DNA of 18,040 nucleotides from Promethearchaeota archaeon (GCA_048940445.1 JBHLON010000048.1:1-18040), one strand, 5' to 3'. Positions 4,561-18,040 are shown, counted from the first letter of the stretch. The notes: a model not told the origin generated them from the sequence alone. Numbers and translations are program-made.

Positions 4561-5052
4561 ATGAGAGAAATAAATTATGATAATATCGTCTCACAATTGA
4601 AAGCAGATTTAAATTCAGAATGCGCAATTGCAAATCAGTACGGAATAATTCTAAGCTCTGCGATTAAAGAATTTTCAAAAGGGAAAGTCATTCCTCAAAA
4701 AATTCTTTCTCTGATTGCGAATTCTCACGATATTGCGAAAGATTTAAATTTAAAAAAAATTAATTCATTTGCCTTAGAGGCTCAAGATTACAATTATTTA
4801 TTCACATTTAATAATAATTTAATTTTAATTTCAAAATTGAATTTAGACGTGAATTTAGCTAAATTCATGCCAAGTATTAGTGTATTTTTGAAAAAACTTG
4901 GAGAAACATCGAAAGGACAGGAAATTAATGAGTTTTCAGTCTTTGATTTCTCTAAAGAAATTAAAAAAATTGAAGATGTAATTAAAGAAGAAAAATCTAA
5001 GAATAAAAAATATTCCATCATAAAAGACCTTGTAAAATATATTTCAAGTTAA
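4561..5052 (+). CDS. Roadblock/LC7 (profilin-like fold) domain protein with C-terminal helical extension
   Basis: Helix, then CAIANQYGIILSS (two strands with turn Gly), helix, three strands (FALEAQDYNYLFTFNNNLILISK), helix (VNLAKFMPSISVFL). This is the roadblock pattern. It ends 21 bp upstream of a small-GTPase gene. Confidence 0.65.
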   Translation: MREINYDNIVSQLKADLNSECAIANQYGIILSSAIKEFSKGKVIPQKILSLIANSHDIAKDLNLKKINSFALEAQDYNYLFTFNNNLILISKLNLDVNLAKFMPSISVFLKKLGETSKGQEINEFSVFDFSKEIKKIEDVIKEEKSKNKKYSIIKDLVKYISS

Positions 5053-5073: not shown

Positions 5074-7005
5074 ATGTTAAGACAGGTTTATATATATAAA
5101 GCTAATGATTTAATTTATTACAGGCATTTTGGAAAAGCTCTAAAGGACGAGGTCTTTAAAACATTATTCACCGATCTAATAAGAGAGGCGTTTGCTAAAG
5201 GGACTGATAAGGTAGATTTTCATGATTATTATAGATATAGGATTTCGTTTATTACGGAATCGAAATTAGATTTAATATTTTTGTTTGTTACCGGTCTTAC
5301 TGATAATTTTGATAATATTAAAAAAGAATTGATAAAATGTAAAAAAGAATTCTTAAACTTATTTGAAGACATTATAAAGCATAAGTACGATGATAAGACT
5401 TTTGAGGTTTTTGATCCTACAATTGATGCAACTCATAAAAATTTGCGACCAAAAATATCGTTAGTAGGATTTTCTGGAGTAGGCAAGACGACAATAACTA
5501 GATTAATCAAGGCTGAAGAAATACCTATGCAACATATTCCCACAATCACAGGAGATATCGCTACAATTAAAATTGGCAAACTACATTTCCATCTTTGGGA
5601 TTTTGCTGGTCAAGAACAGTTTAGCTATCTTTGGAATAACTTTATTAAAGGTAGTGATGCTGTTCTCTTAATTACAGATTCTAGCTTAGAAAATGTAGAA
5701 AAAAGCAAATTCTTTCTAGAATTAATAAAGGAACAAGCCCCACATGCTCATACCGCTATTATCGGGAATAAACAAGATTTAGAGAGCGCTATGAAACCAG
5801 ATCAAATTGAAAAAATTTTAGGATTAAAAACCTACTCCATGATTGCGAAAGATTCTAATAATAGAGACAAAATGATTACCATCATTGCAGATATTTTAGA
5901 AATGAGTGCAGAAATATCTCCTTTATTGCAGCCATTGCTAAAAAGAGACACATTTATCGAACAAGCTACAAAAGCATTAGAAAATGCTGAATTTGAAAGA
6001 GCGGCCAAGTTGTTTGAAAGAATTAGTGATTTATGTATAGAACTGGGCGATGATTCTTTAGGAAGGGAGTTTTACGAAAAATCACAAAAGATTTTAAGTA
6101 TGCTTCAGCAAGTTTCAGGTTCACAACCTAGTAAAACTCCACCAAAAAGTCAGCAAATTGAAGCTCCAATAAAGCCCGTAGAAGACAGTAGTTTGGTAAT
6201 TAAAGAATCCAAAAAGAGTGAAGGATCAAAAGACCTTAAAGAGAAACCTATTGTTCTTAAAAAACCGAAAATGCCTGAAAAACCATCGCCAATTGAACCG
6301 ATTACTTTTAAAAAACCGGTGGAAATGATTACAGAACCAGTTGCTCCTAAAAGATTTGAACCTGAAAGTACGTCATCTTCTTCCCAAGAACCAGAACCCG
6401 TTTTTCCTAAACAAACTGGTTTAGATCTAAATCCCGATGATTTTATGGTAAAGCAGAGACCTAAAACAATTACTACTGTGCCCAAGGATGCAAAGGAAAA
6501 ATTAAAAATTTCTCCTTATGCCCAAGTAACTAATGAGGAAGTTAAACCAATTCCAAAAGATGAAGAACTCAAGAAATTGACTCCACCAAAATCATTCGTT
6601 CCTTTAAAGTCATCAATAGCATCTGCTAAAATAGAAGATTCACCTCAAATAGCTGAAACGGATACAAAACCTTTAGAGCCTGAAGATGTAATTAAACCTC
6701 AACGTTCTCCTCCTAGTAGACCTCCGGAAATTTCGACAGAACCCGTATCAGAAGAAATAAGTCCCGTAGACGAATCTAATACTCAAAATGTTCCAGAAAA
6801 AGCAAATTTAGAAAAAACTCTTATTGACTTAAAAATTAAAAAGGCAAACCTTTCAAAAATGTCATTAGATTTTGATATGAAGGAATTAACTGGAGAAATT
6901 ACTGCCAAAGAGCTTGAAGATAAAAAGAGTAAATTAAGAGAGATTGAAGAGAACATTAATAATCAGATTAAAGAAGTTGAAGAATTACTTAAAAATATTA
7001 AGTGA
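5074..7005 (+). CDS. Multidomain Ras-superfamily small GTPase: N-terminal longin-like domain, GTPase, TPR/MIT-like helices, Pro-rich linker, C-terminal coiled coil
   Basis: G1 GFSGVGKTT (aa 132), G2 PTIT, G3 WDFAGQE, G4 NKQD. The N-terminal ~120 aa (MLRQVYIYKANDLIYYRHF...LIFLFVTG..DNFDNIKKEL) have a longin-like beta-beta-alpha-beta-beta-beta-alpha-alpha pattern. About 230 aa of P/E/K/S-rich low complexity precede a heptad-rich tail. Confidence 0.85.
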   Translation: MLRQVYIYKANDLIYYRHFGKALKDEVFKTLFTDLIREAFAKGTDKVDFHDYYRYRISFITESKLDLIFLFVTGLTDNFDNIKKELIKCKKEFLNLFEDIIKHKYDDKTFEVFDPTIDATHKNLRPKISLVGFSGVGKTTITRLIKAEEIPMQHIPTITGDIATIKIGKLHFHLWDFAGQEQFSYLWNNFIKGSDAVLLITDSSLENVEKSKFFLELIKEQAPHAHTAIIGNKQDLESAMKPDQIEKILGLKTYSMIAKDSNNRDKMITIIADILEMSAEISPLLQPLLKRDTFIEQATKALENAEFERAAKLFERISDLCIELGDDSLGREFYEKSQKILSMLQQVSGSQPSKTPPKSQQIEAPIKPVEDSSLVIKESKKSEGSKDLKEKPIVLKKPKMPEKPSPIEPITFKKPVEMITEPVAPKRFEPESTSSSSQEPEPVFPKQTGLDLNPDDFMVKQRPKTITTVPKDAKEKLKISPYAQVTNEEVKPIPKDEELKKLTPPKSFVPLKSSIASAKIEDSPQIAETDTKPLEPEDVIKPQRSPPSRPPEISTEPVSEEISPVDESNTQNVPEKANLEKTLIDLKIKKANLSKMSLDFDMKELTGEITAKELEDKKSKLREIEENINNQIKEVEELLKNIK

Positions 7006-7095: not shown

Positions 7096-8511
7096 ATGAC
7101 AGTTGTGATCATGAAATTTGGCGGAAGTTGTTTAAATGATCAAGCTGCATTTAATAAAATCCTCAAGATTTCAGAAATTTACGATAATGTAAAAAGAGTG
7201 TATGTTGCTTCCGCCTTTAATGGTGTAACAGATCTACTTCTGAAAATGGCTCAAAATGTTTCTAACGAAACACAATTAGATAAAAATATGGCTATTCTAG
7301 AAAAAAAGCATTTTGATATTATAGAGGAAATTTTTAAAGATGACTCTGAAGAATTTTATAAAACAAAAGAATGGGTAGATCAGAAATTAAGTGAACTTGA
7401 AGAGATTTTTGTTGATATTAGAGAATTTGGATTGGAGCCATATTATAAAGATTCTGTATTAAGTCATGGAGAAATAATCTCTACTTATATATTAAATCAA
7501 TTTCTAGTAAATAGAGGATTAGATTCAGTATATATTCCAGCAAATAAGTTGATAATAACTAATGATGAGTTTAATAATGCTTATCCTCTTTATAATTTAA
7601 CAAATGCTCGGATTGAAAAAATGTTAATACCTTTTTTAGAGAACCCTAAAAAGAACACTATAATTTGCATAACTGGTTTCATTGGAAGAAATAAAATAGG
7701 ATATACTACAACTTTAGGGAGAGGAGGCTCAGATTATACAGCGACAATATTAGCTCATTCCATTTACGAGATAGGTCAAGACAAGGATATTAAAGTAATA
7801 TTATGGAAAGATGTAGATGGTCTCCTTGCTATAGGACCCAATTATGTTCCAAAAGCAGTTTTAATTCGAAATTTAGACTATGAGGAAGCAAAACATATCG
7901 CAAACTTTGGAGCAAAAATTTTGCACCCAAAGTGCCTAGAAGCTATTGAAAAAAATCAAATTCCGTTAGAAATTAGAAATTTTGATAAACCATTAGAAAA
8001 AGTAGATTTTACTACAATTTCAGGATATACTGATAGAAACAATATAAAAGGTATATCTACAGTTGAAGATGGCATAATCATCACGGTAACTTCTGGAAGT
8101 TTAGTTGATGTACCTGGAGTGTTAGCTAAAATATTTAAAATAATGAGCAAAAACAATATTAGTGTCTCTTTAGTTGCTCAAAGCGCATCAGAAGTAAGTA
8201 CATCATTTATAGTCTCGAAGAAAGATGCTGAAAAAGCACTTATAGCTTTGAGAAGATCAGAATATTTTGCAGATTTTTTTGAAATCAAGAATGAAGAAGT
8301 AGCTATAATTAATATTACTGGTTTTAAAGTATTAGATAACCTCACTAAAGTTAAAATCTTTCAAGCATTAGAAAAAAAACAAATAAAAGTCAAGGCCCTA
8401 ACCCAAAGTATTGATGATCTTAACTTTTCGTTAGTGATAAAGAAAGAGAATCTTTTTGATGCGATTAATGTTATTCATCATGATTTATATGAAGATTTTT
8501 TAGAGGAATAA
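7096..8511 (+). CDS. lysC: Aspartate kinase with C-terminal ACT domains
   Basis: MKFGGS, VASAFNGVTDLL, GFIG..TTTLGRGGSDYTA, WKDVDG, GAKILHPK, and ACT motifs (VPGVLAKIFKIMSKNNISVSLVAQSASEVSTSF). Confidence 0.95.
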   Translation: MTVVIMKFGGSCLNDQAAFNKILKISEIYDNVKRVYVASAFNGVTDLLLKMAQNVSNETQLDKNMAILEKKHFDIIEEIFKDDSEEFYKTKEWVDQKLSELEEIFVDIREFGLEPYYKDSVLSHGEIISTYILNQFLVNRGLDSVYIPANKLIITNDEFNNAYPLYNLTNARIEKMLIPFLENPKKNTIICITGFIGRNKIGYTTTLGRGGSDYTATILAHSIYEIGQDKDIKVILWKDVDGLLAIGPNYVPKAVLIRNLDYEEAKHIANFGAKILHPKCLEAIEKNQIPLEIRNFDKPLEKVDFTTISGYTDRNNIKGISTVEDGIIITVTSGSLVDVPGVLAKIFKIMSKNNISVSLVAQSASEVSTSFIVSKKDAEKALIALRRSEYFADFFEIKNEEVAIINITGFKVLDNLTKVKIFQALEKKQIKVKALTQSIDDLNFSLVIKKENLFDAINVIHHDLYEDFLEE

Positions 8512-8552: not shown

Positions 8553-9080
8553 CTATTGTGTTCTTGAATCAATAATCCTTTTTGTTAACTCTGTAAACGC
8601 CGCATCTACATTCTCACCAGTTTTTGCAGATGTCTCGATGTATATACTTTTTTCTTTCTCTGCGAAGGATCTCGCTTCATTTTTATCAATTACCACGCCA
8701 ACATCTTCTAATAAATCAGCCTTATTTCCAATCAAAATAAAAGGAATGTTCTCTCCAGCAAATTGTCGGATTTCTGTTAGCCATTTCCTAGTTTCTGTGT
8801 ACGTCTGTTCTCTCGTTAGATCAAATACTAAGAGAGCGCCAGCTGCTCCTTTGTAAAAAGTGCTACGGATAAATTCGAATCTTTGTTGACCTCCTATATC
8901 CCAGATTGAAAGTGTGGCAAACTCTCCTGATCTAAATTCAACGTCCTTAGTTAGAATATCAACACCTACAGTGAGTTTATAATTCGCAGCAAATCTGTTT
9001 TTTATAAATCTCTGAACTAAACTTGTTTTTCCGACAGCAGCAGCTCCGGTAAGCAAAACTTTTAGTTTAAAACTCGACAT
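8553..9080 (-). CDS. Rab-like small GTPase (Ras superfamily) without a prenylation tail
   Basis: G1 GAAAVGKTS, G2 TVGVD, G3 WDIGGQ, G4 GNKAD, G5 ETSAK. RabF-like motifs VGVDI, LSIW, RFEFIR, FYKGA and LVFDLT. Confidence 0.95.
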   Translation of the reverse strand: MSSFKLKVLLTGAAAVGKTSLVQRFIKNRFAANYKLTVGVDILTKDVEFRSGEFATLSIWDIGGQQRFEFIRSTFYKGAAGALLVFDLTREQTYTETRKWLTEIRQFAGENIPFILIGNKADLLEDVGVVIDKNEARSFAEKEKSIYIETSAKTGENVDAAFTELTKRIIDSRTQ

Positions 9081-9355: not shown

Positions 9356-11290
9356 TTATCTGAGGGGGAGATTTTTATAAAAATCTAAACTGGGAAATAA
9401 ATTCAAATTTAAATGTGGAAAATACATTGCTTCTGCATATTCTCTTTGGAATTTTTTATCTAAAGCTATCTCTATGTAATCTATATTTTTTACTAGATTT
9501 TGAGCTTTAATACGTAGATCTTTATTTATCAAACAATTTTTAGCGCCAACTCCAGCTGCATTACCTATTTGAAATATTTTATCTGAACTAATATCCGGAA
9601 TCATCCCTATAAATTTAGCACTTTCTTTATTAATATAATTGCCAAAAGCTCCTGCTAGAAAAATTTGGGAGATCTTATAGTTTTTGTCATATTTATTTTT
9701 CAGATACGCCATCATGAGCCTTGTTCCTGAGAAGAATGCGGCTTTTGCCATTTGAATTTCTCTTACATCTGTTTGCGAAAGAGTGATTTCTCTTCCATCA
9801 GAGGTTTCATTTTTATAGGCAATTATAAATTCAAGTTTTCCAGCTCTGGTCTGGAATCTGTCATTTTTGATCATAAGTTTATTAAAATTACCACTTCGAG
9901 TTAATGCTTTAGATTTTAGTAGTTCACACACAGCATCAATTAAACCAGAGCCGCAAATACCAATGGGTTTTTTATTTTTTATAGTTGTAAATGATACATC
10001 TAAAGTTTTAGGATGAATCTTTATTGTATCTATCGCACCCCCTGCAGCTCTCATTCCATCTTTGATGTGAGCTCCCTCTAATGCTGATCCTGCTGCACAT
10101 GAACCAGTAATTAATACATCCTTATTACCAATTACTAATTCACCATTAGTGCCAATGTCTAAAGCTAATGTTAAATCAGATTCCTCATCAATTTTAGATG
10201 ATAATATTACACCGACAGTATCTGCGCCAACGAAGCCTGCTATTAATGGTAAAATGTAGACATTTCCTTGAGGAAATATATTTAGATTAAGTTGATTAGG
10301 AGAATAATTTAATCCTTTTTGAATCACAGGAACATAAGGACTCAATCCAATACTGATAGGATTTAATCCAAGAAAGATATGGTGCATAACTGAATTACCC
10401 ACTATAGTAATTTCAAAGATTTGATAGGAATCTATCTTTGCTTTAGTACATAATTTTTTTATCAGTTTATTTAATGCTTCTACTACTATAGAATTCAATT
10501 TACTAAGTCCGTCTTCATTATCTTTAGTATAAGTGATCCTAGTTATTACATCTTCTCCATAAGCTGTTTGAGGGTTTAGCATGGAAGCGACTGCATATGT
10601 TTTTCCATTATGGAGATTGATTAAATATCCTACTATAGTGGTTGTCCCTATATCAAAAGCAACTCCAAAATTTTCTTCAGTTTTATTTCCAGGTTCACAC
10701 CGAATGATTTTAGAACCATTCAGAAGAGTAATAGTAAAATCATTATGCTTCACCAATCGAGGAAGATACTTTAATACTTCAAAATCGATATCTAATACTT
10801 TATCACTGTTTATTTCAGCTAATATTCTTTCGAACTGGGGAATAGGATTGTCTAATGATGGTTTTTCGACTTGGAGGTGAAATTTTCGTATATTAGGAGA
10901 AAGTTTAGTTTCTTTTGTAATACCAGATGTTAAAATCTTAAAATCTTCAATTAATAACTCATCATGCAGGAAAATAATAATTTGGGGTAAGGCAGAATTT
11001 TTTAATATTTCAATTTTATTGGGATTGATTTTTAATTGACATGCTAATCTCCAATGGTCATCTAAATCTTGTTGTTTTAAAAATTTAACTTCTAGTTGAG
11101 TCGGTGAATTAAAAAACTCTTTTCCCTTCTGAATCTGCAATTTACATTTCCCACAAGTACCTTGTCCTCCACATAATGTCCTGATTTGGATTCCTGAATC
11201 GATAATGGTTTGATAAATGGTTTTATCTTTTGAAAAATGCAGTCTTCTTGAAATTGGCTCCAAGTCTAAAATAAAATTAAAATTCTCCAT
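9356..11290 (-). CDS. ASKHA-domain reductive activator of corrinoid proteins (RACo/AcsV-like, DUF4445) with N-terminal [2Fe-2S] ferredoxin domain
   Basis: [2Fe-2S] ligands CGGQGTCGKC...RLACQ. ASKHA motifs FDIGTTT, NPQTAYGEDVITRI, AGFVGAD, LDIGTNGE, SCAAGSALEG, GICGSG, LAGAFGNYI and GNAAGVGA. Confidence 0.92.
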   Translation of the reverse strand: MENFNFILDLEPISRRLHFSKDKTIYQTIIDSGIQIRTLCGGQGTCGKCKLQIQKGKEFFNSPTQLEVKFLKQQDLDDHWRLACQLKINPNKIEILKNSALPQIIIFLHDELLIEDFKILTSGITKETKLSPNIRKFHLQVEKPSLDNPIPQFERILAEINSDKVLDIDFEVLKYLPRLVKHNDFTITLLNGSKIIRCEPGNKTEENFGVAFDIGTTTIVGYLINLHNGKTYAVASMLNPQTAYGEDVITRITYTKDNEDGLSKLNSIVVEALNKLIKKLCTKAKIDSYQIFEITIVGNSVMHHIFLGLNPISIGLSPYVPVIQKGLNYSPNQLNLNIFPQGNVYILPLIAGFVGADTVGVILSSKIDEESDLTLALDIGTNGELVIGNKDVLITGSCAAGSALEGAHIKDGMRAAGGAIDTIKIHPKTLDVSFTTIKNKKPIGICGSGLIDAVCELLKSKALTRSGNFNKLMIKNDRFQTRAGKLEFIIAYKNETSDGREITLSQTDVREIQMAKAAFFSGTRLMMAYLKNKYDKNYKISQIFLAGAFGNYINKESAKFIGMIPDISSDKIFQIGNAAGVGAKNCLINKDLRIKAQNLVKNIDYIEIALDKKFQREYAEAMYFPHLNLNLFPSLDFYKNLPLR

Positions 11291-11474: not shown

Positions 11475-14400
11475 ATGCAAGATAACGATTATTTAGCTCA
11501 AGAAGCCCTTAAATATCTAGACATAGCTCAAAAGTTTGAGCAAGAGGGAAAAAATGAGGATGCTATTGAAAATTATCAATTAGCTGCTGATTATCTTAAA
11601 AAAAGCGGATATATGATGCATCGAATCAGTGATTTATATGAGAGAATCGAGGAATTAAAATCTTTTATGCGGAATCAAAAGTTATTCCAACATGAACAAT
11701 TATCTGCCCAAATTGAGAAATTTCAAGATCAGGCATTTATATTAATTGATAAAGCGAATAATTTAGAATCCGAAGGGTTTTTTCAAGATGCTATTGAACG
11801 TTATAATTCAGCTTTAAAATTACTACTTCAAGCTGGGTGGTCCCAAACTCAAATTCAGAATATAAAAACGAAAGTTTCAGATCTAATTGAAAAACAAAAT
11901 CTTCAAAAATCAATCAAAAGTCAAAAAGAAATCCAATTACCTACAGATGTACAAAGTAGCCCTCAAATAGTTGATGCATTCGGGGAAAAAATAGATGTTG
12001 AAAAGGCTGAACAACTTATAAAATATAGAGAAGAAAAAGCAAAACAAGAACGTATTCAGAATGATGCATTCACTTTTATTGATAACGCAAAATTCTTCGA
12101 GAGAGATAATCAGTTCGATAAAGCTATTCAAAATTATGAAAAGGCAATTGAATTGTTAATTTCAATTGGATGGGCAGAACAAACACAAAATCTCCAATTT
12201 ATAGTAGAAAAACTTAGAATAGAGAAACAGAAATATGATAGTTTCAAATTACAACCTCAAATAAGTGAAGAAGATTTAAGTAGAAGAATTTATGATGAAT
12301 CTCAAGTATCGATTAATGGAACCAAAATTATTGAATTTGACCATAAAAAAAGAACCGAGGAAGAAATCCAAATTGAAGCGTTTAATTTAATTGATTTTGC
12401 AAAAAAATTAGATAGAGAGAAAGATTATAATAAAGCGATTGAAAAGTTCCAAAGGGCTATACAACTCTTTAAATCAATTGGATGGGATTCTTATATCCAA
12501 CCTATTATGAATTTTATAAAAGACGTGAAGAAGAAACAGAAGAGTGAAGATTCACTTGAAAATTTAAAAAGCAAGAGAGAAGTGGAAATAAAAAAAATTC
12601 AGGATTCTTTTTATGTTAAAGAAAGGGAAGAGATAGTCCAGACAGCTAAAGAACAAGAAATCAGACGTAAAGAATATGAACAAAAAAGGAGTAAACAGAT
12701 AATAAAAGAGAAAGACTTTTTTACTTTTTTAGATAAAGCTGATGATGCTCTTCAAAAGAAACGTGATTTTGATACGGCGTTAACGGAATATCAAAACGCA
12801 TTAGAAACACTTTTTGATCTTGGTCCAAGTTGGGAATCATATATCCCTATGATTAAAACCACAATTAATAGTGTTAAAAAGCTGAAGGAAGCACAGTATA
12901 AAAAGGAATTTGAAACTCAAAAAAGATTAGAAGATAAGCAGAAAGAAGAATCAAAATTTCAGCAACAAATTACAGACATTTTACAAAGAGAGCGTGAAAA
13001 GCTAAAACAAAGAGAATTTGAAATCAAATTAGAACAAGAAAAGTCGGAGTACTTCGAGCATAGGAGAGATTCTGCATTTCAAGCATTAGATGATGCTCAA
13101 AAGTATGTTAAAATGGGAGATTTAGATAAAGCAATTCAAAAATATCAAAATGTAGGGAATATTTTTGCAGAAATTCAGTGGAATGATGAATTACCCCTAA
13201 TCGAAGAATCAATTAAAGAATTAGAGCAAATGAAAAAAGAGTCAGAGATAAAACGACAGGAAGGTATGCAAAATGAAATTGAAAGGCAAAAAGAAGAGCA
13301 AGCCTTTCAGGAGAAGATTTCAATCCAATTACGTTTAGAACAGGAAAGATTGAGAAAGAGAGAAGTAAAATTAAGAGAAAAAGAAAAAGAATTAGAATAT
13401 CGCCAAAAAAGAAAGGAGGATGCTTTTAAGTTATTAGATGAGGCTCAAAATTTAATTAACCAAGCAGATTTTGATAAAGCAATTGAATTGTATCATGATA
13501 TTACTAACATTTTCGCTGAAATCCAATGGTATGATGAAGTAGAATTCATAGGTAATGCAATAATTGAAATTGAAAATAAAAGGCGCGAATATTTTCTAAA
13601 AAGACAAGGAGAATTACAAGAAAAATTAGAGAGGGAAAGAGAAGAAAGAGATTTTCAAATTAATATCACTGAAAAATTAAAGTCTCAAAAAGAGAAATTT
13701 AAAGAAAGATCATTAAAATTAAGAGAAAAAGAGAAGGAACTTGAATATAGAGAAGATAAGCGTAGAGATGCATTCAGATTGATAGAAGAAGCACAAAATT
13801 TTCTTTCATTAGGTAAGTTTAATGAAGCTATAGAGACTTATAGAAAGGTTGCAAATCTATTTGCACAAATTCAATGGAGAGAAGAAATTCCTATTATAAA
13901 TAATGCCATTCTTGAAATTGAAACCATAAGAAAAAAGAAAGACATCATTGATCAAAAACATATGGAAGATGTTATTAGAAAAGAGATGGACAATAGAGAA
14001 TTCGCTGAAAGAATAAGACTTCAGAGAGAAATAGAAGGTAAACGATTAACCACAGATCAAGAATTAATTGCAAAAAAGAAGAAACTTTCTGCCCAAAATC
14101 TTTCTAAACAAGAAGAGGCATTTAAATTATTAGATAAAGCTGATGATATTCTTAAAAGAGAAGAATTTAATGACGTTCTTGGGATTTATCAGCAGGCTTT
14201 AAATATATTAGAAAATATTGGGTGGACCGGGGGGTATATTAAATTAATAAAAGAAACTATCAATGAATTAAAGATTAGAAATGAAGAGAAGCAGAGACGA
14301 GAATTAAAAGAGAAGGAATTATCAAGAAAGCAAATTGAATCTGAGAAGAAATTTGAAATGCAAATTAAGGAATCTATGGAAAAGGAAAAAGCAAGATTAA

Positions 14401-16421
14401 AAGTAAAAAAGATTGAAATAAAGAAGAAAGAAGAATTAATTAGACAGATGGAATCGCTAAAAATCGAAGCTTTTAATTTGATGGATAAAGCAGAGAATTT
14501 AATGAATCAAGGATTATATGAACAAGCTATCGAACTTTATCATCAAGCAGAACTAGTTTTAAACGAATTGCAATATCCAACAGATTCCATTAAAGAATTA
14601 ATCTTGGACATACAAGAAAAGAAGAGAGAAAAAGAATTAGCAAAACAATATGAAATGGAACAACAAATTAAAAAACAAGAAGAACAAAAAATCTTTCAAC
14701 AAAAAATTACTGAGAACATGAAATATGAAACAGATCGAATAAGAAAAAAGGAAATTGGACTTATAAAACAAGCACGAGCTAAAGAGTATATAGAGAAACG
14801 GAGAGAAGATGCTTTTGATCTTTTAGAACAAGCTGAAATTCTTATGAAGAAATCTCAATATAATAAAGCAGTTGAATTTTACCATAGTGCTGAACTAATC
14901 TTTAATGAAATTCAGTTTCCCACAGACTCACTAAAAGAATTAATAATAAAAGTTAGAGAAAAGAAAAGAGAACAAGAATTAGAGAAACAAAAACAATTGG
15001 AATATGAGATTCAAAGGGAAAGAGCTAAACAAAAATATGATACGAAATTAGTAGAACAAATTAGTAAAGAGAAGGAAAAATTAAAAAGAAAGGAAATTAA
15101 AATCCAAAAATTAGAGGAAATCAGAATTAAAGCTGAAATTAATAAAGAGAAAGCATTTAAAATCTTAGATGAAGCCGAAAGATTTACAAAGAATAAAGAT
15201 TATGAAAAAGCTATTAATAGTTATAGAAAGGCCATGTTGATTTTGAATGAAATCCAATATCCTACCGAACCTATCTCCCAGACAATTGTAAAAGTAGAAG
15301 AACTAAAGAAAAAGAAAAGTGAAGAAGAGCAGTTAAATCTAAAGAAACAATTAGAAAAAATGGAAGAAGAAAAGAGATTGATATCACTTATAGAAGAAAG
15401 GAGAAAATATGAAAGAGAAAAAGAATTAGCTCAAAAACTTGCTATCGAAGAAAAAGAGAGGCTAGTCCAAGAGCAATTAAGCAATAGAGAGACAGCATAT
15501 AATCTCTTAGAAAAAGGTGGAACCTATCTTAAAAGAAATCAACCAGATTATGATAGAGCAATTTCATTATACGTACAAGCAAGAGATATTCTAGCAGAAA
15601 AGGTCGGTTGGGAACCTGAAATAAATAATTTAGATATTTTAATCGGAGATTTAGGGAAGGAGAGGAAACATTCTATGGAAAGGAAAGAATTAGAGACTCA
15701 AATACAAATTCAACGTCAAAAAGAGTATGATAGATTTCAAGAGGAGATAAGAAATAGACGTGAAGAGTATTTAAGAAAAAAGAAAGAACAACAAAGTAAG
15801 ATGAGGCAATTATCACAACGTAGGGAGCAGATTGATCAAATTAAACAAGATGCCTTAGAGCTAATAGATGAAGGAAAACGATTAGCAGTCCATCATGACT
15901 TTGAAGGTGCTTACTTGAATTTTGAAAAAGCACTTACTAAATTTAATGAAATTGGTTGGACAGAACAGGCAAAATTTATTAAAAGGGAAATTGAAAATAC
16001 AAAATTATTACAAGAAAATGTAAAACAAGATGAACTAAGAATACAAGAAATTTATGAGGATTTGACAAGTAAAAAACAATTAGAAGAACTTCGTCTATTA
16101 GAAGAAGAAAAAAGGATACAGCAAACTGTGGGCAAAGTAAGCGATATGACAAATGAGGTATCCCAACTAATTAAAGAACAAGATAAAGAGATAAAAACAA
16201 AATTAAAGAAAGAAAAAGTATTATTGAAAAAAGAAGCAAAATCATTTAGTAAAGATATGGCAAATTTATTAAAGTTAAAGCAAGAGCTTATCGAAGAGAT
16301 AAATAGATCTAAAGAAAAATCTGCAAAAGAGAGAGAGGACCTGCAAAAAGCGAAAGACAAAGAAAGAGCTAATGAGATCAAGAAAATGTTAAAGGATGTA
16401 TCTAAAAAAGAAAAGAATTGA
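11475..16421 (+). CDS. Giant helical repeat protein: 14 MIT/TPR-like modules joined by E/K/R/Q-rich helical spacers
   Basis: Uninterrupted 1648-aa ORF. The motif AFxL(L/I)DxAxxxxxxxx(F/Y)xxAIxxYxxAxx(I/L)(F/L)xx(IGW/IQW/IQYP) recurs 14 times with charged spacers between copies. Confidence 0.85.
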   Translation: MQDNDYLAQEALKYLDIAQKFEQEGKNEDAIENYQLAADYLKKSGYMMHRISDLYERIEELKSFMRNQKLFQHEQLSAQIEKFQDQAFILIDKANNLESEGFFQDAIERYNSALKLLLQAGWSQTQIQNIKTKVSDLIEKQNLQKSIKSQKEIQLPTDVQSSPQIVDAFGEKIDVEKAEQLIKYREEKAKQERIQNDAFTFIDNAKFFERDNQFDKAIQNYEKAIELLISIGWAEQTQNLQFIVEKLRIEKQKYDSFKLQPQISEEDLSRRIYDESQVSINGTKIIEFDHKKRTEEEIQIEAFNLIDFAKKLDREKDYNKAIEKFQRAIQLFKSIGWDSYIQPIMNFIKDVKKKQKSEDSLENLKSKREVEIKKIQDSFYVKEREEIVQTAKEQEIRRKEYEQKRSKQIIKEKDFFTFLDKADDALQKKRDFDTALTEYQNALETLFDLGPSWESYIPMIKTTINSVKKLKEAQYKKEFETQKRLEDKQKEESKFQQQITDILQREREKLKQREFEIKLEQEKSEYFEHRRDSAFQALDDAQKYVKMGDLDKAIQKYQNVGNIFAEIQWNDELPLIEESIKELEQMKKESEIKRQEGMQNEIERQKEEQAFQEKISIQLRLEQERLRKREVKLREKEKELEYRQKRKEDAFKLLDEAQNLINQADFDKAIELYHDITNIFAEIQWYDEVEFIGNAIIEIENKRREYFLKRQGELQEKLEREREERDFQINITEKLKSQKEKFKERSLKLREKEKELEYREDKRRDAFRLIEEAQNFLSLGKFNEAIETYRKVANLFAQIQWREEIPIINNAILEIETIRKKKDIIDQKHMEDVIRKEMDNREFAERIRLQREIEGKRLTTDQELIAKKKKLSAQNLSKQEEAFKLLDKADDILKREEFNDVLGIYQQALNILENIGWTGGYIKLIKETINELKIRNEEKQRRELKEKELSRKQIESEKKFEMQIKESMEKEKARLKVKKIEIKKKEELIRQMESLKIEAFNLMDKAENLMNQGLYEQAIELYHQAELVLNELQYPTDSIKELILDIQEKKREKELAKQYEMEQQIKKQEEQKIFQQKITENMKYETDRIRKKEIGLIKQARAKEYIEKRREDAFDLLEQAEILMKKSQYNKAVEFYHSAELIFNEIQFPTDSLKELIIKVREKKREQELEKQKQLEYEIQRERAKQKYDTKLVEQISKEKEKLKRKEIKIQKLEEIRIKAEINKEKAFKILDEAERFTKNKDYEKAINSYRKAMLILNEIQYPTEPISQTIVKVEELKKKKSEEEQLNLKKQLEKMEEEKRLISLIEERRKYEREKELAQKLAIEEKERLVQEQLSNRETAYNLLEKGGTYLKRNQPDYDRAISLYVQARDILAEKVGWEPEINNLDILIGDLGKERKHSMERKELETQIQIQRQKEYDRFQEEIRNRREEYLRKKKEQQSKMRQLSQRREQIDQIKQDALELIDEGKRLAVHHDFEGAYLNFEKALTKFNEIGWTEQAKFIKREIENTKLLQENVKQDELRIQEIYEDLTSKKQLEELRLLEEEKRIQQTVGKVSDMTNEVSQLIKEQDKEIKTKLKKEKVLLKKEAKSFSKDMANLLKLKQELIEEINRSKEKSAKEREDLQKAKDKERANEIKKMLKDVSKKEKN
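13074..15494 (+). repeat. Degenerate intragenic tandem repeat core, period 342-351 bp (114-117 codons)
   Basis: Unit starts (Ala of the AF/AY motif) at 13074, 13422, 13770, 14118, 14469, 14811, 15153 and 15495, giving spacings of 348, 348, 348, 351, 342, 342 and 342 bp. KLREKEKELEYR is identical in two consecutive units. Confidence 0.9.
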
Positions 16422-16598
16422 GCCCTTTTTCTTAATAATAGTTATTATATTTCTAAAAATTGTTATTAGATTTTTAAATAGAGAGTAAAATTTGATAATC
16501 TTAAATCTTAATGTTTATTCTCATTAAATACTGAAAGAATTTAAATTATTTTGATTTGTTAATATATTCATAGAATAATTAAATAATGCCATCTTAAA

Positions 16599-18040
16599 AT
16601 GACGGAAAATAAGGAGGATGTTTTAAAGTCTAGAGTATATGCAAGGCAGCAATTAATTGATGGATGGGATCAAGAGGCTCTTGAGAAAGCATGTTTAATG
16701 ATTGTGGGAGTTGGTGCACTTGGATGTGAAATTGCTAAAGATTTTGCATTAATGGGCATAGGAAAACTCATTCTTGTAGATTTAGATACTATAGAAACTT
16801 CTAATTTATCAAGGCAAATGTTATTCAAACCCGGAGATGAGGGGCGTTCTAAGGCAGAAGTAGCAGCTGAGCGATTGAAAGAAATGAATCCCTTTTTAGA
16901 AACTGATTCTTATTTTGAGAAGCTCCAAAAATTATCTATGTCAGTATATGAAGAATCTGATGTAGTGGTTGCCGCTTTAGATAATTTTAATGCTAGATTG
17001 GACTTGAATAAAATTTGTCTAAGATTAAAAAAACCAATGATTGAAGGAGGGACTGTAGGTTTTGAAGGACATGTTCAAATTATAATCCCTGAAGGTTCTG
17101 GAATTAATTATAAAGATAGAATCACTGAAATTCAGAATATTGTTGATAGTAAAATGTGGGAGCTTGATACACCCGAATATCAGGATGCTTTAAGAGAAAT
17201 TGATGAGTTAGAACAAAAAATAGAAAGAATAAGGCAAAATGTAATCGATCCTATTAGAGAACAAATTCGGAAACAAGTGGAGGTGGATTTTGATACAAAG
17301 TATGCTGAAAATGTGTTGAATGTTACTCCTTGTTATAGATGTCTTGTTCCAATTCCACCTGCTGATGACAAATTAATTGCTGCTTGTACCTTAAAGGGGT
17401 TACCTAGAAATAGAAATCATTGTGTAATAAAAGCGGAGGTTGACTTTGAAAAAAAATATGGTTTTAAACCAGATATGAATATGGATGAAGACGTTATAGA
17501 GTTAAAACAACTGGCACAACAAGAACTCGAAAAATTAAGGCAACGTGTATTTAATGAAAATGTACCTACAGAAAAGCTAGAGTCTTTAGGTTCTGAAGAG
17601 ATCCAAGAATGGAAAGATAATATTAAAGGAACATTTGGTCCAGATTTTAAATTCGAAGAAATGGAGAATATATTGGGAAATAAAATTGCTGCTATTCAAT
17701 CAGTAAGCTCAGTTATAGCTAGCATACAATCACAGGAAGCATTAAAATTAATATTTAGATTACATGGTAGAGATGTTGGATCACCAATGGATCCTCCCTA
17801 TATTAATTATAACGGTGTATATGGTCAATTTGATCATCTTGATATTGTGAAAAGAGATGATTGCTTAGCTTGTGGCAAAATTGAAGGTGAAGAGAATATA
17901 CAAATTGTTGTACCTTTTGATGCAGATATTGGATATATATTTAAGGCTCTGAGAATAGTTGGACATTCCTTAGAGCCAATCTTGTGGATGATTACTAATC
18001 CTGCTTCAAAAGAAATATATTGGAATCCATATATTCCTTC
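16599..18040 (+). CDS. Eukaryote-type ubiquitin-like activating enzyme E1 (UBA3/UBA2-like, ThiF superfamily), 3'-truncated by the window
   Basis: Not in the ORF track; translated by hand from ATG 16599 with no stop before the window end (480 codons). Motifs: VYARQ, IVGVGALGCE (GxGxxG), DLDTIETSNLSRQMLF, GRSKAEVAA, ALDNFNAR, PMIEGGTVGFEGHVQIIIP, Zn sites CYRC (C245/C248) and CLAC (C422/C425), catalytic CTLKGLPRNRNHC (C263, codon at 17385), NKIAAIQSVSSVIASIQSQEALKL. Confidence 0.95.
   Translation, partial: MTENKEDVLKSRVYARQQLIDGWDQEALEKACLMIVGVGALGCEIAKDFALMGIGKLILVDLDTIETSNLSRQMLFKPGDEGRSKAEVAAERLKEMNPFLETDSYFEKLQKLSMSVYEESDVVVAALDNFNARLDLNKICLRLKKPMIEGGTVGFEGHVQIIIPEGSGINYKDRITEIQNIVDSKMWELDTPEYQDALREIDELEQKIERIRQNVIDPIREQIRKQVEVDFDTKYAENVLNVTPCYRCLVPIPPADDKLIAACTLKGLPRNRNHCVIKAEVDFEKKYGFKPDMNMDEDVIELKQLAQQELEKLRQRVFNENVPTEKLESLGSEEIQEWKDNIKGTFGPDFKFEEMENILGNKIAAIQSVSSVIASIQSQEALKLIFRLHGRDVGSPMDPPYINYNGVYGQFDHLDIVKRDDCLACGKIEGEENIQIVVPFDADIGYIFKALRIVGHSLEPILWMITNPASKEIYWNPYIP

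Follow-up and report, generated by a model that had tools for sequence, protein, structure and literature searches.

The window analysed here is the entire contig C138 (JBHLON010000048.1, 18,040 nucleotides) of a Promethearchaeota archaeon (GCA_048940445.1) with a genome of 3.64 Mb. It carries a giant repeat gene, termed REP1, which is followed on the same strand by the gene of a eukaryote-type ubiquitin-activating enzyme (E1), and the question raised by this locus is whether both encode parts of one ubiquitin- and ESCRT-related module, as the original prediction had proposed, or are separate genes that were inherited side by side. REP1 occupies an open reading frame (ORF) at 11475-16421 (+) and encodes 1648 aa, the E1 ORF starts at 16599 (+) and is open at the window end (18040), and the spacer between them (16422-16598) measures 177 bp; ORF calls and repeat profile agree with the 14-repeat gene, the 177-bp gap and the same-strand E1 described beforehand. 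A truncation of the E1 gene within the genome was ruled out, as coding continues on contig C52, which shares a 77-nt overlap with C138 and on which the E1 stop was found (full length 524 aa), and an assembly artefact as source of the REP1-E1 layout was ruled out by intact orthologues in more than 80 genomes. The answer favoured here, with somewhat better than even confidence, is that REP1 and E1 are transcribed separately and belong to a collinear block inherited throughout the family, because this block includes the genes for aspartokinase, RACo and a HAD hydrolase, a subtilase gene intervenes in relatives, a promoter-like motif of E1 is kept and both genes are 30-50 kb apart in a sister family. 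Gene anatomy, synteny, distribution and the conservation of the promoter motif were observed directly, the folds are predictions, and functions and partners are inferred throughout.

Conservation of the REP1-E1 neighbourhood

Several observations speak for a tie between the two genes and have to be held against their independence: in 83 of 86 genomes of the own family REP precedes E1 on one contig and in the same orientation, the distance is below 600 bp in at least 50 genomes, and in the sister family both genes are still located within 30-50 kb of each other. Here, 86 denotes the genomes for which both genes are listed, and as related genomes are not independent, counts are given instead of statistics. 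The neighbourhood assumed originally is hence conserved within the own family; however, the whole block is equally collinear, taking in also an Arf fusion, aspartokinase, Rab, RACo, the HAD hydrolase and a ubiquitin-conjugating enzyme (E2). Between REP and E1 a subtilase gene was identified in at least 24 genomes, namely in 23 from six genera of the own family and in G008 from a second family, whereby it lies on the strand opposite to REP and was confirmed by Pfam in six cases. No orthologue of it was found in the source assembly, and its spread over six genera and a second family suggests an ancestral origin of the intervening gene, followed by several losses.

The second line of evidence comes from a promoter-like motif consisting of a transcription factor B recognition element (BRE) and a TATA-like sequence (16530-16547, +), which is located approximately 50-60 nt before the E1 start codon and was found to be kept irrespective of whether the upstream gene is REP or the opposite-strand subtilase. 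As the genome-wide enrichment of this pattern upstream of ORFs is modest, the promoter assignment rests on conservation among orthologues; a sigma-70 scan is not applicable to archaeal promoters. A T-rich tract right after the REP1 stop (16426-16433, +) is a possible archaeal terminator, a weak indication in AT-rich DNA, with like tracts following the gene in many orthologues. As a separate observation, a short minus-strand stem-loop with a T-run (16589-16605) overlaps the E1 start codon.

In the complete genomes of the sister family (G021, P. syntrophicum; G016, L. ossiferum; and G013) REP adjoins the orthologous Rab gene (65-68% identity), and E1 is 47-50 kb away in the first two and 30-50 kb away across all three, while in G008 the E1 gene is inverted relative to REP. 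Taken from the sequences compared, an uninterrupted operon devoid of an internal promoter does not appear to exist, and the REP-E1 ubiquitin and ESCRT module of the original prediction is not supported, given the subtilase in between, E1's own promoter motif and the separation within the sister family. As long blocks are collinear in the own family, adjacency tells little about function there, which is what this negative outcome teaches.

The further members of the block lie upstream of REP1. A Rab-type small GTPase gene (8553-9080, -; Pfam and synteny) is divergent from REP1, and between both resides the gene for the corrinoid-activation protein RACo (9356-11290, -), an unrelated metabolic gene which served as control for inherited order; the aspartokinase gene (7096-8511, +) is another unrelated metabolic member of the block. 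The Arf-like GTPase fusion (5074-7005, +) comprises an N-terminal domain, the G-domain, a helical segment, a Pro-rich linker and a helical tail; its short helical segment is TPR-like, the Pro-rich linker is long, and the gene, which is conserved in the class, directly follows the 3' end of a roadblock-like gene. The two upstream small GTPases noticed beforehand were thus both confirmed. The roadblock-like gene (4561-5052, +), which had been called as such, encodes a probable roadblock-fold protein with Robl_LC7 look-alikes at 0.86-0.90 and without a Pfam match, and is to be taken as a lead only.

The REP protein family

What is novel at this locus is the REP protein family, i.e., soluble rods, and not a REP-E1 system. 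At E<=1e-8 the family profile finds matches in 148 of the 154 genomes that represent one order (Promethearchaeales), but in 0 of the 246 genomes from elsewhere in the Asgard archaea, and about 240 clusters (50% identity) reach 1e-10; the homologues carry the labels Promethearchaeota or Lokiarchaeota. Two giant paralogues occur almost throughout the order and are encoded by both cultured species, P. syntrophicum (DSAG12_01966 and DSAG12_01611) and L. ossiferum (NEF87_004398 and NEF87_004034), where they are annotated as hypothetical or TPR proteins. The source genome possesses, next to REP1, a second giant and a shorter third paralogue, whereby the second giant is probably one gene (C64:3-1466, -, and C58:40121-43351, -) that the assembly split where internal repeats are nearly identical; its counterpart in the sister family measures 2274-2547 aa and its C-terminal units are short-spaced. 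A literature search of incomplete coverage yielded no paper on the REP family or its locus tags, and these tags are absent from those supplements of the L. ossiferum papers that were examined. In G136 the REP gene (L008) is split by a frameshift and in G040 (L079) it encodes only 501 aa with 4 units, reflecting either loss or assembly error.

REP1 consists of 14 three-helix units, which according to the repeat profile start at aa 6, 82, 193, 297, 410, 529, 645, 761, 877, 994, 1108, 1222, 1336 and 1455, are joined by charged helices (E 15.7%, K 14.5% of the protein) and are followed by a conserved C-terminal helical tail of about 130 aa. The N-terminus is formed by a tandem pair of units 76 aa apart, a spacing which is invariant among orthologues, whereas the later period is mostly 113-119 aa; in orthologues the spacings are nearly fixed (116, 116, 116, 117, 114, 114, 114, 119), the modal period of the protein family is 116 aa, and among approximately 100 family representatives the linker has its mode at 74 aa. 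The number of units varies strongly, with 14, 15, 18, 20 and 25 in the own family, 7 in G008 and approximately 5-7 in the sister family, so that change occurs by duplication of whole units with the linker length kept (overall about 5-25 units). In the same representatives no transmembrane segments are predicted and no obvious fused globular domain was identified, a few low-charge segments being present, and REP1 itself contains no enzyme domain. The lysine content, which had been taken as pointing to a conjugation substrate, was rejected as such a mark, as 14.5% is ordinary for a charged-helix rod and shows nothing on conjugation; the long multivalent scaffold suggested as the other possibility fares better, its architecture being scaffold-like.

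An AF2 model of REP1 units 6-8 (111 aligned sequences; predicted local distance difference test score 84, predicted template modelling score 0.37) shows 17-residue helices in alternation with unbroken ones of 73-94 residues. Each bundle is hence predicted to combine a short helix with the tail of the preceding long helix and the head of the following one, and helix geometry would give a length of approximately 11 nm for each unit and of about 150 nm for all 14. A Foldseek search of the PDB with the three-unit model returned no match at E<=0.001, and structure and feature searches of the ESM Atlas returned only unannotated or TPR clusters (best template modelling score 0.51, best score 0.84), neither of which is proof of a new fold.

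The rod is reminiscent of three known systems. With spectrin and plakin repeats it shares three-helix bundles arranged in a chain, helix C running into the next helix A, a local match to plectin (Z 9.1) and a similar period, which is 106 aa for the spectrin repeat. However, only about half of the REP period is bundled, helix B counts only 17 aa in the model, a match to spectrin (PF00435) was not obtained at E<=0.1, and neither an actin-binding nor an EF-hand domain is present. With TPR and SNAP solenoids it shares the helix-turn-helix, and databases label some members as TPR proteins, yet long linkers keep the REP units apart and no superhelical stacking is seen, the period of 113-119 aa, in which one long helix leads from unit to unit, differing from a contiguous 34-aa TPR superhelix. 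With MIT proteins such as Vps4, katanin p60, USP8 and NRBF2 it shares the three-helix bundle of about 60 aa and the pattern A-x6-A-x11-A-x3-Y in helices 1-2; in contrast to these proteins, which possess one or two copies, REP proteins possess 14-25 and are devoid of an ATPase or protease domain and of ESCRT neighbours.

The likeness to MIT domains gives rise to the first alternative, according to which REP units would be functional MIT domains, chiefly the N-terminal tandem pair, that bind ESCRT-III tails and cross-link or space their filaments independently of E1. Pfam MIT (PF04212) scores 71.7 bits on the whole of REP1 and 30.2 bits on unit 2 alone, the cut-off being 30, and MIT is the commonest family among single REP units (60 of 98). 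Moreover, VIA-align to the MIT domains of Vps4, USP8, katanin, NRBF2, Atg1 and calpain-7 gave Z 8.0-9.2, and the invariant 76-aa spacing recalls that tandem MIT domains occur in calpain-7, ULK3, Vta1 and Atg1. On the other side, TPR families pass the Pfam cut-off as well, no single REP stretch did so in a genome-wide Pfam MIT scan, and TPRs and designed bundles score equal to or above MIT domains, so that the match to 2w2u (Z 8.4, root-mean-square deviation 1.2 over 63 aa) is non-diagnostic, unrelated bundles scoring alike; the top PDB sequence matches are consensus TPR proteins. Alignment of REP units to 30 Asgard Vps4 MIT domains by hhalign covers 29 columns only, restricted to helices 1-2, and the invariant helix-3 signature of the Asgard Vps4 MIT domain (Y56, R59, A60 and L63) is absent from the unit consensus, in which helix 3 is devoid of Y-x-x-R-A-x-x-L and extends as a helix of about 90 aa. 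As the profile match is confined to the helix 1-2 hairpin common to MIT and TPR and the helix-3 residues are missing, REP units should not be classed as Vps4-type MIT domains. The units were described originally as MIT-like, and this holds for the fold only, even though a REP unit may act in an MIT-like manner by offering a groove for a helix. Given further that no ESCRT gene lies near either giant paralogue, functional MIT domains are considered unlikely.

The second alternative, which is rated as quite unlikely, sees REP as a self-assembling cytoskeletal or nucleoid filament, a periodic polymer in which hydrophobic linker faces would dock into bundles of neighbouring chains. It is in line with a conserved hydrophobic stripe on the linkers (F-x3-I-x3-hydrophobic), with their near-fixed length, with the free expansion of unit number and with the near universality of the two giants. 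However, covariation on 1343 REP units revealed weak linker-bundle couplings that are confounded by subfamilies, and helical-phase quantisation of linker lengths is not significant; a homodimer prediction for units 6-8 (score 0.00) carries no weight either way.

Returning to REP1 as an independent unit, its protein would most likely serve as a structural tether or scaffold. It is assumed to be a soluble extended rod in which, per period of approximately 116 aa, a short bundle is followed by an uninterrupted charged helix of about 90 residues that enters the next bundle. A fixed linker combined with a variable number of units would suit a ruler, a tether or a cortical scaffold which either displays evenly spaced helix-binding surfaces or pairs with other REP copies. 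Small GTPases would be the most likely regulators of REP, given that both giants keep GTPase neighbours across families, which is a weak indication: Rab is the deepest conserved neighbour of REP, and a small GTPase gene is found near the second giant in the sister family. The association of GTPases with REP expected originally is borne out to that extent, but Rab itself lies within a region which is collinear in general, and as PDCD5-like and deacetylase genes also move with the REP region, the tie to GTPases is to be regarded as no more than a lead. Two further points count against the functional part of this reading, namely that the source genome encodes 33 small GTPases (strict motif count) and that the rod, tether and GTPase roles are drawn from architecture and neighbourhood.

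The E1 enzyme and its candidate cascade

The E1 (aa 1-480 of 524 encoded at 16599-18040, +, the remainder on C52) is of the Uba3/Uba2 type. Its ThiF domain scores 197 bits and has an intact adenylation site with GxGxxG and SNLxRQ motifs, Cys263 (17385-17387, +; motif ACTLKGLP) aligns to the catalytic Cys of Uba1 and is invariant in 34 orthologues, CxxC pairs of the Zn type are found at 245/248 and 422/425, and a UFD-like domain starts at about aa 430, seen as a beta-grasp-like tail in the model of an 88%-identical orthologue. The same model gave Uba3 as best Foldseek hit over its full length (E 2e-23), and the eukaryote-type E1 with its catalytic Cys motif, as recognised beforehand, is thereby corroborated. 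With Uba3 (NEDD8 E1) and Uba2 (SUMO E1) the enzyme shares the adenylation domain, the CxxC pairs, the half-domain with the catalytic Cys and the UFD; it differs from them by two extra helical inserts, the lack of an adjacent ubiquitin gene and the lack of an identified APPBP1/Aos1-like partner. The inserts (about aa 165-242 and 312-343; 17091-17324 and approximately 17532-17627) occur in families f1-f3 only and are absent from f4 and f7, the comparison indicating that they were gained in f1-f3.

Two f4 orthologues (L071:8992-11286, -, 765 aa; L083:1616-4072, -, 819 aa) possess, ahead of the active adenylation domain, a second one at the N-terminus in which the Gly-rich loop is degenerate. This layout of an inactive and an active half in a single chain resembles eukaryotic Uba1 and probably arose by independent duplication. 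Among other orthologues, short hairpin insertions interrupt conserved motifs of E1 (L136-L144, after aa 41), mostly with in-frame stops, and like insertions are found in E2 (L139 and L145-L155, at aa 57, 65, approximately 128 and 146). They measure 30-39 nt in gapped alignments and approximately 24-27 nt where the frame shifts, several fold into a bulge-helix-bulge, and from their sequences they are probable tRNA-type introns of mRNA; the E1 and E2 genes of the source genome are free of them.

Past E1, C52 encodes a GNAT acetyltransferase, the HAD hydrolase and membrane proteins, followed by the E2 (C52:3944-4450) on the opposite strand, approximately 7 kb downstream of E1 and conserved at 62-98% among orthologues. 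Of the companions that the original prediction had looked for beyond 18040, the E2 was thus found, while C52 showed no gene for ubiquitin, JAB or ESCRT proteins, and within 10 kb the E2 stands alone in place of a cluster of ubiquitin, E1, E2, E3-JAB and ESCRT genes. The E1-E2 linkage holds in f1 (the own family), in f2 (G008) and in G006 of another order, where both genes are divergent and accompanied by a JAB homologue, and in the cultured species both genes are unlinked. E1 and the downstream E2 would hence make a better-supported functional pair than REP and E1.

In total, the source genome has three E1-E2 sets, the canonical operon of ubiquitin-like protein (Ubl), E1, E2 and JAB spanning C68/C70 and the third set residing on C110. 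Two paralogous Ubls (C68:31156-31530 and C68:33390-33713), which end in STAG instead of GG and have acidic N-terminal extensions, are candidates for this E1, as is the Ubl on C110. The E1 would act as activator of a second ubiquitin-like cascade, charging a Ubl encoded elsewhere, possibly one of the two STAG paralogues, whereupon its UFD would hand the Ubl to the E2, as suggested by the chemistry of eukaryotic Uba2/Uba3 and by the E1-E2 linkage in three families.

Vps4 and ESCRT-III are encoded on C101 and C69, not on C138 or C52, and with the Ubl genes on other contigs too and the Vps4-type helix-3 signature missing from the REP units, the proposed ESCRT link is not supported. Hatano 2022 (PMC9192718) reports discrete ubiquitin and ESCRT regions for Lokiarchaeota, as is the case here, and a survey lists many multidomain ESCRT-related proteins (Makarova 2024, PMC10936438); the parts of both papers covered here do not mention a multi-MIT rod protein or this E1 subfamily. 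Like the Asgard ubiquitin-ESCRT clusters, the present locus represents ubiquitin-system genes in Lokiarchaeia, differing from them by the absence of an ESCRT gene.

That this E1-E2 cascade uses REP as its scaffold or dedicated substrate, selection holding the genes together, is very doubtful: the same-strand collinearity, which reaches a second family and stays below 50 kb in a third, and the confinement of the E1 inserts to f1-f3, all of which bear REP, are outweighed by the subtilase, the separate promoter motif, the inversion in G008, E1 orthologues which span the class including Lokiarchaeia families and orders without detectable REP, REP without E1 inserts in f4 and the equal collinearity of unrelated genes.

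Meaning for the Promethearchaeales

The REP rod family deserves attention, while the proposed REP-E1 system is weakly supported. The Asgard archaea in culture form protrusions and possess an actin cortex, but to our knowledge long proteins that serve as linkers or tethers are scarce among those described from them; two giant periodic rods which are specific to the order and almost universal in it are hence a concrete candidate for such a role, checkable in existing proteomes. Tentatively, and with clearly more doubt than conviction, the pair may be conceived as a structural system of the Promethearchaeales, i.e., periodic rods of 100-300 nm, regulated by GTPases and possibly also by the second Ubl cascade, which would tether or space membrane or cytoskeletal structures, for example in protrusions, or scaffold ESCRT-III via multivalent MIT-like surfaces. 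The E1, in turn, suggests that a second cascade of the Uba3 kind exists, equipped with a conserved E2 of its own, and bears on the timing of parallel ubiquitin-like pathways. If the tether assignment holds true, the rods would represent a prokaryotic counterpart of spectrin or of golgin-type tethers, with two cultured species available.

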